DNA of 64,000 nt from Eledone cirrhosa. Taxonomy: Eukaryota. The translations under genes and the position numbers were made by a program. The notes under the pieces are model-generated. The model made no database searches. It had not been told where the DNA came from and saw only the letters and a list, made by a program, of their open reading frames with translations. Each line of letters begins with the position of its first letter. The stretch's first letter is position 1. This document shows positions 33,735 to 40,681 of this stretch, piece by piece. Location of the stretch: contig OZ024740.1 of NCBI GenBank assembly GCA_964016885.1, forward strand, positions 247,628,001-247,692,000, read 5' to 3'.

Positions 33735-33915
33735 GTATTGGCACAAGACCAGCAAATACCCAGTACATTACTGGTACTTTATTTTATCGACCCCTTAAGG
33801 ATGAAAGGCAAAGTTAACCTCGGCGAGATTTGAACACAGAATGGCAAGGGCCGTAACTCTATGCGTCAAAGCATGGTGTCCGACCCTCTACCGATACTGC
33901 CAATCCACCACCCTT
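33735..33915 (-). mobile_element. tRNA-derived SINE
   Basis: Reverse complement of the 32.5-kb family; identical by eye to the copy at 40.5 kb. Confidence 0.85.
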
Positions 33916-33941
33916 TCTATATTTATTAATATTTTGAAGTA

Positions 33942-34434
33942 ATATATATATATATATATATATATATATATATATATATATATATATATATATATATATA
34001 TATATATATATATATATATATATATATATATATATATATATATATATATATATATATATATATATATATATATATATATATATATATATATATATATATA
34101 TATATATATATATATATATATATATATATATATATATATATATATATATATATATATATATATATATATATATATATATATATATATATATATATATATA
34201 TATATATATATATATATATATATATATATATATATATATATATATATATATATATATATATATATATATATATATATATATATATATATATATATATATA
34301 TATATATATATATATATATATATATATATATATATATATATATATATATATATATATATATATATATATATATATATATATATATATATATATATATATA
34401 TATATATATATATATATATATATATATATATATA
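33942..34434. repeat. Pure (TA)n, about 490 bp
   Basis: Direct inspection of the sequence. Confidence 0.98.
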
Positions 34435-34482
34435 GGAAATATATGAAATATAAGAATCAAAGAACTGTTCAAAACATTATTG

Positions 34483-34529
34483 TGCTTACAGCTGTTTCCT
34501 CCAAACCGAGGTTTGGATTCTTCGGAGCA
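34483..34529 (-). ncRNA. Hammerhead in the inverted arm of PLE-B
   Basis: Reverse complement of 35819-35865. Confidence 0.7.
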
Positions 34530-35818
34530 ATTTATTAATGCATGGACAGTTATATGACCTCCCTTTCAGCCGAGAGACATACCAATACATATTCAAACAT
34601 TGATACATATTCAAACATTGTGGGTCAACATTCATTACAGAATTTAGAGTGGCAGTACACACTTCGAGATTACATTTATATTAATAGGTACAATCAAAAA
34701 TCAAAGATATAGGTTAAAGTACAACATGAAGATAAGTGGTTATATAGTGCAAATGTTATATGTGTGGCACGCATGTGCGTCTTGTTTATATAGTGTGGCA
34801 GAGAGATATGTGTGGTAGAGGCACTTAGGTAGGTAAATAAGAGTGTTAGGTTGGTAGATCTGGTGGCAAAGTCTTTATATGATTGATATAGTCTGTGTGT
34901 GGAGAAATATTATAAGCATTAAAGATAGTGCAAGCATTAAAAGTGTTATAAGTATTGGAGATGCACAGCGCAGGGATGTCAAGTAATTCATGTACTTCGG
35001 TATTTTCATGGTCAAGGGAGTGTATATTTCGATTATATGCCTTTCACATAATCCACGACAATCCAGTTAGAGATCGTAGTCTGGTGTTCTTTAGTTCGAT
35101 ACAGGAGGTTGTTACGTTTCGAGAGACGCCATTGAATACCGGAAGTGTGTGTGTGGCTAAGGGGAGTTAATGCATGCGGGGAGGTAACTCTGGGGTTTCT
35201 ATATCTAGCCATTAAAATGTGTCCCAATATAGACCCTAAATTCTATGGTGAGGTGCACCTTCCAAGAGAGACTTTTAAAGCATAAAGTGTACTAACTATA
35301 GAGTAGTTTAACTAAATTATGCTGAAGGTGATCATATTATTATTAAGGTGGATTAACCCATCTTAAGGTGCTACAAATGGAAATTATAGATGATGAGCGA
35401 GGATTCTAAATTAATGATCTCTGTGGTTGTAGTCTGCTCATATGACCAGGCGCGGTGATTGCAGGATTGCTTCAGGACCCAATGATCTCTGGTAAGATCT
35501 GGGTCATCGCTTGCTACATTGGATGTCGAAAGATAATCATCCCCAGGCAGGCCAAAGGTCAATCCGCAGTCCTCGCGACCCCTCTCTGACCGTCAGATCA
35601 TCCATATACGTACAACCCGCACGGCAGTTGCATTGCATTCACTCACTGCGCTCAGCAGCCTGGTCCTACTGGTCAACAGCGCTACTCGATTAAATCATTT
35701 TACATCTGTCTAATGAATGTTGACCCACAATGTTTGAATATGTATCAATGTTTGAATATGTATTGGTATGTCTCTCGGCTGAAAGGGAGGTCATATAACT
35801 GTCCATGCATTAATAAAT

Positions 35819-38574: not shown

Positions 38575-40017
38575 CAATGTCGGACTGGAACCTAACACCA
38601 CATCTAGCATCAAACACCAGAGACACACCCTATACTACATACCCAACACTAGCTGATCCATTATAACACAAACAACGACATCCCTCTGGAACCCTTCGCA
38701 GGGAAAATACCCATTTATACCTCTACGGCAGGTGTGACAACATCCACCCACCTGGACGGCACTACACCGCTCTAAGGGTAATTTGAGCATGAATTGATCG
38801 GTTGGATGGTGTTGGGCAGAGGAAACACCTTCCTTAGACAGATGTAAAATGATTTAATCGAGTAGCGCTGTTGACCAGTAGGACCAGGCTGCTGAGCGCA
38901 GTGAGTGAATGCAATGCAACTGCCGTGCGGGTTGTACGTATATGGATGATCTGACGGTCAGAGAGGGGTCGCGAGGACTGCGGATTGACCTTTGGCCTGC
39001 CTGGGGATGATTATCTTTCGACATCCAATGTAGCAAGCGATGACCCAGATCTTACCAGAGATCATTGGGTCCTGAAGCAATCCTGCAATCACCGCGCCTG
39101 GTCATATGAGCAGACTACAACCACAGAGATCATTAATTTAGAATCCTCGCTCATCATCTATAATTTCCATTTGTAGCACCTTAAGATGGGTTAATCCACC
39201 TTAATAATAATATGATCACCTTCAGCATAATTTAGTTAAACTACTCTATAGTTAGTACACTTTATGCTTTAAAAGTCTCTCTTGGAAGGTGCACCTCACC
39301 ATAGAATTTAGGGTCTATATTGGGACACATTTTAATGGCTAGATATAGAAACCCCAGAGTTACCTCCCCGCATGCATTAACTCCCCTTAGCCACACACAC
39401 ACTTCCGGTATTCAATGGCGTCTCTCGAAACGTAACAACCTCCTGTATCGAACTAAAGAACACCAGACTACGATCTCTAACTGGATTGTCGTGGATTATG
39501 TGAAAGGCATATAATCGAAATATACACTCCCTTGACCATGAAAATACCGAAGTACATGAATTACTTGACATCCCTGCGCTGTGCATCTCCAATACTTATA
39601 ACACTTTTAATGCTTGCACTATCTTTAATGCTTATAATATTTCTCCACACACAGACTATATCAATCATATAAAGACTTTGCCACCAGATCTACCAACCTA
39701 ACACTCTTATTTACCTACCTAAGTGCCTCTACCACACATATCTCTCTGCCACACTATATAAACAAGACGCACATGCGTGCCACACATATAACATTTGCAC
39801 TATATAACCACTTATCTTCATGTTGTACTTTAACCTATATCTTTGATTTTTGATTGTACCTATTAATATAAATGTAATCTCGAAGTGTGTACTGCCACTC
39901 TAAATTCTGTAATGAATGTTGACCCACAATGTTTGAATATGTATCAATGTTTGAATATGTATTGGTATGTCTCTCGGCTGAAAGGGAGGTCATATAACTG
40001 TCCATGCATTAATAAAT

Positions 40018-40064
40018 TGCTCCGAAGAATCCAAACCTCGGTTTGGAGGAAACAGCTGTAAGCA
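40018..40064 (+). ncRNA. Hammerhead (U4C core), 3' pLTR of PLE-B
   Basis: Identical to 35819-35865. Confidence 0.7.
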
Positions 40065-40270
40065 CAATAATGTTTTGAACAGTTCTTTGATTCTTATATT
40101 TCATATAACTGCTCTGTAAATCATCTGATGTTTTTACATTGAGCTACTTAACTTATTGGTAATAAGGTAGTAATACATTACTGCCTACCACTATTTAGGG
40201 TGTGTGTAAAATACTTACAACTGCTTAAGGTTTTGTGTTTACATAACCATAAATAGTATAACTAATACTA

Positions 40271-40502
40271 TATATATATATATATATATATATATATATA
40301 TATATATATATATATATATATATATATATATATATATATATATATATATATATATATATATATATATATATATATATATATATATATATATATATATATA
40401 TATATATATATATATATATATATATATATATATATATATATATATATATATATATATATATATATATATATATATATATATATATATATATATATATATA
40501 TA
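40271..40502. repeat. Pure (TA)n
   Basis: Direct inspection of the sequence. Confidence 0.98.
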
Positions 40503-40681
40503 TTACTTCAAAATATTAATAAATATAGAAAGGGTGGTGGATTGGCAGTATCGGTAGAGGGTCGGACACCATGCTTTGACGCATAGAGTTACGGCCCTTG
40601 CCATTCTGTGTTCAAATCTCGCCGAGGTTAACTTTGCCTTTCATCCTTAAGGGGTCGATAAAATAAAGTACCAGTAATGTA
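40503..40681 (+). repeat. Inverted duplicate of 33764-33941 (unique flank + truncated SINE)
   Basis: Reverse complement by eye, including the non-SINE stretch TTACTTCAAAATATTAATAAATATAGAAAG. Confidence 0.9.

Follow-up and report, generated by a model that had tools for sequence, protein, structure and literature searches.

Among somatic L1 insertions, foldback inversions (inverted duplications) of 52 to 220 bp account for 0.3% of events, with one further case accompanied by twin priming, and their origin is placed in additional DNA synthesis when the insertion is resolved (Nam et al. 2023, PMC10191854). Breaks made by L1 ORF2p give rise to local inversions, inverted duplications and templated insertions; at L1 targets, the inverted duplications are explained by the processing of nuclease-made breaks (PMC11702581). 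In snap-back SD-MMEJ, an inverted primer repeat lets a 3' end fold; the end copies its flank and unwinds, and microhomology annealing across the break then yields a longer inverted repeat. The insertions described in the accessible sections measure one to tens of bases (PMC5728401). For Penelope-like elements (PLEs), integration is poorly defined, and TA targets mask target-site footprints. The available portion of the Hydra-clade description lists a C-terminal endonuclease with RWK-like, DKT, CxCX5C, CxxC and CxH motifs and no CCHH motif, together with (TA)n targets, a pseudo-LTR (pLTR), an inverted 5'-truncated arm and a one-sided tail (PMC8557442).

Here, we analysed a 64,000-nucleotide stretch of the Eledone cirrhosa genome (the window), in which one PLE, PLE-B, is enclosed by mirror copies of the same host flank. 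Like the L1 foldbacks in the text available, this is a rare inverted copy of target flank at a retro-insertion (PMC10191854). Unlike them, the copies enclose the entire element from outside two TA tracts, adjacent to a primed 3' end, and the same layout also occurs without an insert. The locus would share with L1 ORF2p breaks a cut by a retroelement nuclease whose ends are processed before ligation, whereas those sites, as far as the excerpt describes them, have a T-rich target, discrete TSDs and no self-complementary microsatellite (PMC11702581). Relative to SD-MMEJ, the primer repeat here would be the TA tract itself, and the copies reach 72 to 178 bp. PLE-B also departs from the published accounts in its size (a unit of 4.2 kb, against generally under 3 kb in the Hydra clade) and in its tail (161 bp, against 30 to 40 bp for PLEs), and its inverted flank duplication has no counterpart in the available part of the clade description (PMC8557442). 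A literature search, mostly of open-access titles, for mirror flank copies at PLE sites or TA tracts found none. The mirror copy is an infrequent by-product for which L1 and SD-MMEJ offer close precedents, and is no new system. Ordinary end-repair chemistry likely accounts for it, and it is informative on the ends of PLE targets.

Mirror copy at the index locus

The mirror copy is real in the assembly. In a pairwise comparison within the window, positions 33764-33941 and the reverse complement of 40504-40681 were identical at 178 of 178 positions, pairing from 33764 with 40681 onward and running without mismatch into both TA tracts. The source flank, Y (33764..33941, + strand), comprises 153 bp of a host SINE-like repeat and 25 bp of AT-rich host DNA (33917-33941) that are common to both copies. 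Its inverted copy, rc(Y) (40504..40681, − strand), starts one base later than given in the first-pass annotation, position 40503 being the last TA base. That annotation was otherwise borne out on the make-up of the flanks: the match includes the non-SINE stretch, the left SINE is complete (33723..33916, − strand) and the right one is cut off at 40681. A 34-base junction word, composed of the TA edge, the AT-rich stretch and the SINE start, occurs at exactly two places in the 3.0-Gb assembly, both of them flanks of this locus. The full-length left repeat is a 194-bp match with 90.7% identity to the copy at 32495-32688 and 72-88% to other copies. Elsewhere in the window, the left flank has five SINE-family matches at 71.6-90.7% identity, so that 100% identity is not expected of two independent SINEs.

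Perfect (TA)n tracts of 493 bp (33942..34434) and 235 bp (40269..40503) lie inside the two copies; the former is the longest left tract among the 147 usable loci of our survey (next, 101). Directly after rc(Y) stands a (TA)4 remnant (40680..40687), likely a stub of the original tract, with its first TA common to copy and remnant; the same remnant is present at other cases. It leads into the right flank B (40688..41100, + strand), a piece of an old repeat, by eye from a LINE-like family, whose relatives match from about 40698 and which has one 100% occurrence in the assembly. The layout thus reads Y-(TA)n-[PLE]-(TA)m-rc(Y)-(TA)4-B, and the simplest pre-event allele would be Y-(TA)n-B. On the source side, the copied stretch ends inside a weak 6-bp hairpin (33760..33774, + strand; DNA fold, z −1.94 for a 66-nt stretch), at a TA matching the stub. 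Besides the shared TA, the rejoin has a further 5-base match, offset by three TA units; microhomology this short is weak alone. An 11-base match of the start of B to the open reading frame (37581) was rejected as being at chance level.

No empty allele, haplotig or second haplotype was found for this locus in the assembly. The candidate read data comprised nine runs of short contigs or RAD reads, with the best shares (0.41-0.45) from one sample. When 40504-41700 was compared with four read runs, SINE and repeat copies swamped the matches, and no junction-bridging piece was among those listed.

Mirror copies at other PLE-B loci and at TA tracts

Genome-wide, TA follows 938 exact 3' termini of the PLE-B family. 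Our survey covered 157 of the roughly 937 other than the index: 10-kb stretches at 99 of the first 100 listed termini (index omitted), 55 termini with TA of at least 68 bases, a batch biased to long TA tracts, and three others. With the index, this gave 158 loci, of which 147 (146 others) were usable on both flanks; 11 were dropped for an unreached left end, no match chain or N gaps. Among the 146, a near-edge test was positive at L041, L068 and L192 (0.7 expected from cross pairs, 103/21170), and a test tolerating nested inserts at L041, L149, L168 and L192 (0.79 expected). A strictly anchored test on the first 69 loci found no excess over cross pairs.

Locally unique mirror copies of 45 to 152 bp were found at three of the 146 other copies, with words that occur genome-wide only at each locus's own two flanks. 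They measure 152 bp at L068, 127 bp with 2 mismatches at L149 and 45 bp with 1 mismatch at L168. Because some copies carry mismatches, the class of mirror copies is biological. At L068, 6 of 153 positions differ in the mirror copy against 0 of 505 in the element arms (p = 1.5 × 10−4), so that the copy predates the insertion or else was copied with many errors. At L149, 2/127 differences in the mirror copy against 7/1732 in the arms (p = 0.12) are compatible with copy and element being of one age. Inside the bracket at L149, and likewise at L168, is a second, small PLE belonging to another family. Bracketing thus affects some 2-3% of PLE-B copies (3/146; 95% range, 0.4-5.9%). The flank survey proposed in the first-pass annotation did uncover further inverted duplications, but they are no rule of this element, and they do not fit an obligate PLE integration footprint: at most five of the 146 other copies could qualify, and the L068 copy appears older than its insertion.

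The weaker cases are short or coincide with a repeat end (L041, 27 bp; L049, 10 bp), and both have a TA-like remnant. As a unique mirror case L041 is ambiguous, its word having 371 copies in the genome, several in close inverted pairs. L192 was rejected as two copies of another family's end, 93% alike, with arms identical at 544 of 544 positions. L031 and a 1.3-1.8-kb match at L037 are offset repeats that are not edge-anchored and went uncounted (the L037 word has nine matches, two of them the L037 pair), and L082, a compound microsatellite, was left unscored. This 371-copy word of L041, a (GA)n-associated repeat end, showed several close inverted pairs among the first 100 places listed, possibly from the same fold-back process. 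At the left end of L093, the insertion itself contains 15 bases mirroring the left flank, which separate a 3-base inverted stub from the direct arm. L109 and L101 have direct duplications of 660-820 bp, 92-95% identical, flanking the insertion on both sides; these are probably tandem copies of another element. The other PLE in the window, along with a small element nested there, lies between mirrored 13-base words at the TA edges (24345-24357 and 30772-30784), and TA plus this word has three genome occurrences only, two of which are those sites.

Mirror copies also occur without PLE-B inside. Among 974 such TA tracts in the locus flanks and the window, all near PLE copies, seven had edge-anchored mirror copies of 14-72 bp, against 0.64 expected from shuffled pairs (Poisson p = 5 × 10−6). 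A TA remnant was scored at five of these seven element-free cases, against 0.21 by chance, and four are clear. The fifth, L180, owes its score to a short run on the other side, its long TA tract standing 8 bases beyond the copy; its 72-bp copy lies beside an element, which sits in the stub tract, outside the loop. In 20 stretches of neutral DNA of 10 kb each, 0 of 154 TA tracts had a mirror copy, a result that does not fix the background rate because only 0.35 was expected. The first three versions of the background scan had been discarded, the third partly (12/20 hits), as dominated by compound microsatellites. By a looser test, 5 of 184 control centres, some of them repeat ends, compare with 4 of 146 PLE-B loci (p = 1.0); unique copies of at least 40 bp, a cut chosen post hoc, were found at 3/146 PLE-B loci and 0/184 controls (p = 0.086). 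A coupling of palindrome formation to PLE insertion is suggested.

The clearest case, L164:8215-8600 (G000:C3:77773153-77783152), has no element inside. Its interrupted TA tract is mirrored break for break, A breaks becoming T breaks at spacings of 19 and 27. After the mirrored tract come 86 bp of flank in reverse and then (TA)7. A 4-base marker is present twice, as a staggered cut would leave it. No other single locus records such a cut within a TA tract as well as L164, where the fold can be seen directly. At L120:8400-9200, TA-centred palindromes 65-172 bp in size form an array, such as several successive rounds of snap-back might leave.

Snap-back repair and its alternatives

We consider that the 178-bp mirror copy is probably the product of snap-back (SD-MMEJ-like) repair at a (TA)n break. 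A break in the tract would expose a single-stranded 3' TA end, which would fold onto itself and be extended, with first the tract and then 178 bases of the left flank as template; the copied strand would then unfold and rejoin a TA stub on the right flank. The polymerase may have been a host Pol theta-like enzyme or the RT of the element. The PLE would sit in the palindrome's TA loop, with one arm primed from each TA end. Several observations point this way: the TA tract is self-complementary, the inverted flank copy starts at the tract edge, the TA shared with the (TA)4 remnant supplies microhomology at the rejoin, and the same layout recurs with and without a PLE inside. In the available text of one study, TA tracts are break sites repaired by MMEJ (PMC13645644), and, at AT-rich DNA, elements of the PLE class cut both strands and extend them (PMC11167929). 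In the proposed mechanism, several PLE families also cut TA tracts in this genome. Counting against snap-back, 178 bp plus hundreds of TA bases is long for SD-MMEJ; L149, L068, L168 and the PLE-A case have no TA remnant; and the index combines zero mismatches with a left TA tract longer than any other in the sample, features that an assembly error would likewise produce. The first-pass annotation had the flank copied in reverse by hairpin priming on a self-complementary (TA)n, which fits the junction and the other cases. Its further premise, that the element's two ends primed the copy, is not required, given that element-free TA tracts share the layout and the L068 copy appears older. It had also set the locus against the direct TSDs of ordinary retro-insertions, a weak contrast here, as TSDs are often not discernible in microsatellite-targeting PLEs according to the sections available (PMC8557442).

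The order of events is not readable from the sequence, because 0 differences in 178 positions bound the divergence of the copy only to below 1.7% and the enclosed element is equally young. Copy and insertion could well belong to one event, although we stop short of calling this probable: the element nuclease would cut, the end would snap back, and the loop would be cut again so that both TA ends prime cDNA. We are more doubtful that the palindrome arose earlier and was then targeted by the PLE, and a later origin, through breakage of the right tract and with strand folding aided by the 1.28-kb arms, seems unlikely. A tentative extension of snap-back repair is that TA-targeting PLE endonucleases might stagger-cut (TA)n, with the 3' TA end priming itself and the hairpin loop serving as the substrate for double priming. 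If this were true, aborted attempts would leave element-free TA palindromes, PLEs would be a steady source of inverted repeats in microsatellite-rich genomes, and TA-centred palindromes would form a fossil record of the integration intermediate. Rare snap-back products would in any case reveal the end state of the target, namely 3' overhangs in (TA)n, staggered cuts (L164) and rejoining to a TA stub, and show a route from TA microsatellites to palindromes.

An error of assembly or polishing, in which the true right flank is another sequence and the assembly instead followed, or was polished to, the left flank in reverse via TA and the inverted arms, would account for the zero mismatches and the very long perfect TA tracts (493 and 235 bp). 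A SINE with a long inverted repeat is hard for assemblers, as the accessible text notes (PMC8557442), and the four runs queried with 40504-41700, where repeats swamped the matches, yielded no spanning-read support. We nevertheless find such an error improbable: the centre is asymmetric, with the architecture normal for the family (the inverted end at 4038 recurs in 94 of 158 loci), and the copy stops after 178 bp at a TA-remnant junction, as it does in diverged, hence real, cases. Little weight likewise falls on copying in trans without a TA fold, whether the left end primed both cDNAs, using sister chromatids or a displaced piece of flank, or the right end entered the left flank and copied it. 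It could draw on the 5-base microhomology between the end of the right flank and the bases just outside the source copy, and on the templated insertions reported near L1 sites in the excerpt (PMC11702581), but it explains less simply both the same layout without a PLE and the mirrored TA interruptions at L164.

The first-pass annotation had also offered 3' transduction of donor flank into both arms, and the stretch does lie downstream of TA at both element ends. This we now hold to be scarcely credible: the arms end at different sites (4038 and 4199, 161 template bases apart), so the flank cannot follow both in one RNA; the left copy is continuous with native DNA; and the junction word is nowhere else in the assembly, where no donor carries it. 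Abundant as the SINE is, an empty site already carrying two independent inverted SINEs has a similarly minute probability and is refuted at the sequence level, with the other copies 72-91% identical, 25 non-SINE bases common to both sides and a unique junction word; recent gene conversion would still need those 25 unique bases. Snap-back repair thus remains our preferred reading of the copy.

The element between the TA tracts

PLE-B is a young PLE whose motifs match those of the Hydra clade, the clade being assigned by motif list. The full unit is 4199 bp long (36070..40268, + strand). It is preceded by a pLTR (35711..36069, + strand), a partial tandem copy of the 3' end that matches 39910-40268 at 356 of 359 positions, and by an inverted 5'-truncated arm (34435..35720, − strand) that starts at template position 4038 and matches 38827-40107 at 1279 of 1281 positions, both differences adjoining the inversion junction. 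Only the direct arm carries the 161-bp tail (40108..40268, + strand). Insertion into (TA)n, the pLTR, the inverted arm and the one-sided tail are Hydra-clade features present here. An open frame of 832 aa, stop to stop (36076..38574, + strand), is predicted to encode an RT followed by a GIY-YIG-type endonuclease at the C terminus. It has RT motifs at residues 273-413, a GIY-YIG-like core at 710-727 containing one Cys, RWR at 51-53, DKT at 136, CxCX5C at 691-699, CxxC at 789 and CxH at 817, and no CCHH. Atlas neighbours of the protein carry GIY-YIG and RVT_1, and Pfam and PDB searches with it gave no match. By eye, the 3' UTR has a minimal hammerhead-like motif (40017..40064, + strand; stem II and stem I fold, z −1.67); an Rfam search for a hammerhead ribozyme, which in this clade lies in the pLTR, found none.

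The asymmetry of the arms is family-wide. The inverted arm almost always starts from template site 4038 (94 of 158 loci), 161 bases inside the direct end, and the direct arm from 4199, in line with another PLE that has two fixed initiation sites and a one-sided tail (PMC11167929). Inverted and direct arms often overlap by hundreds of bases (median, 247) and cross the unit junction, which suggests that the template was two RNAs, or was circular or in tandem, and not a single RNA twin-primed as in L1. At 23 of 87 scored ends, the inverted arm has one to five extra copies of its terminal 7-9 bases. Such copies are seen in the window (34435-34444, one reiterated unit) and at the left ends of many other copies, e.g., L128 and L164, and are absent from the direct end in the loci viewed. 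This reiteration resembles what telomerase-type re-priming on a TA primer might produce; a limited literature search found no paper on terminal reiteration at inverted PLE arms. Elsewhere in the window, an intact frame of 1174 aa (8061-11585, + strand) looks by eye like an RT carrying a restriction-like endonuclease at its C terminus.
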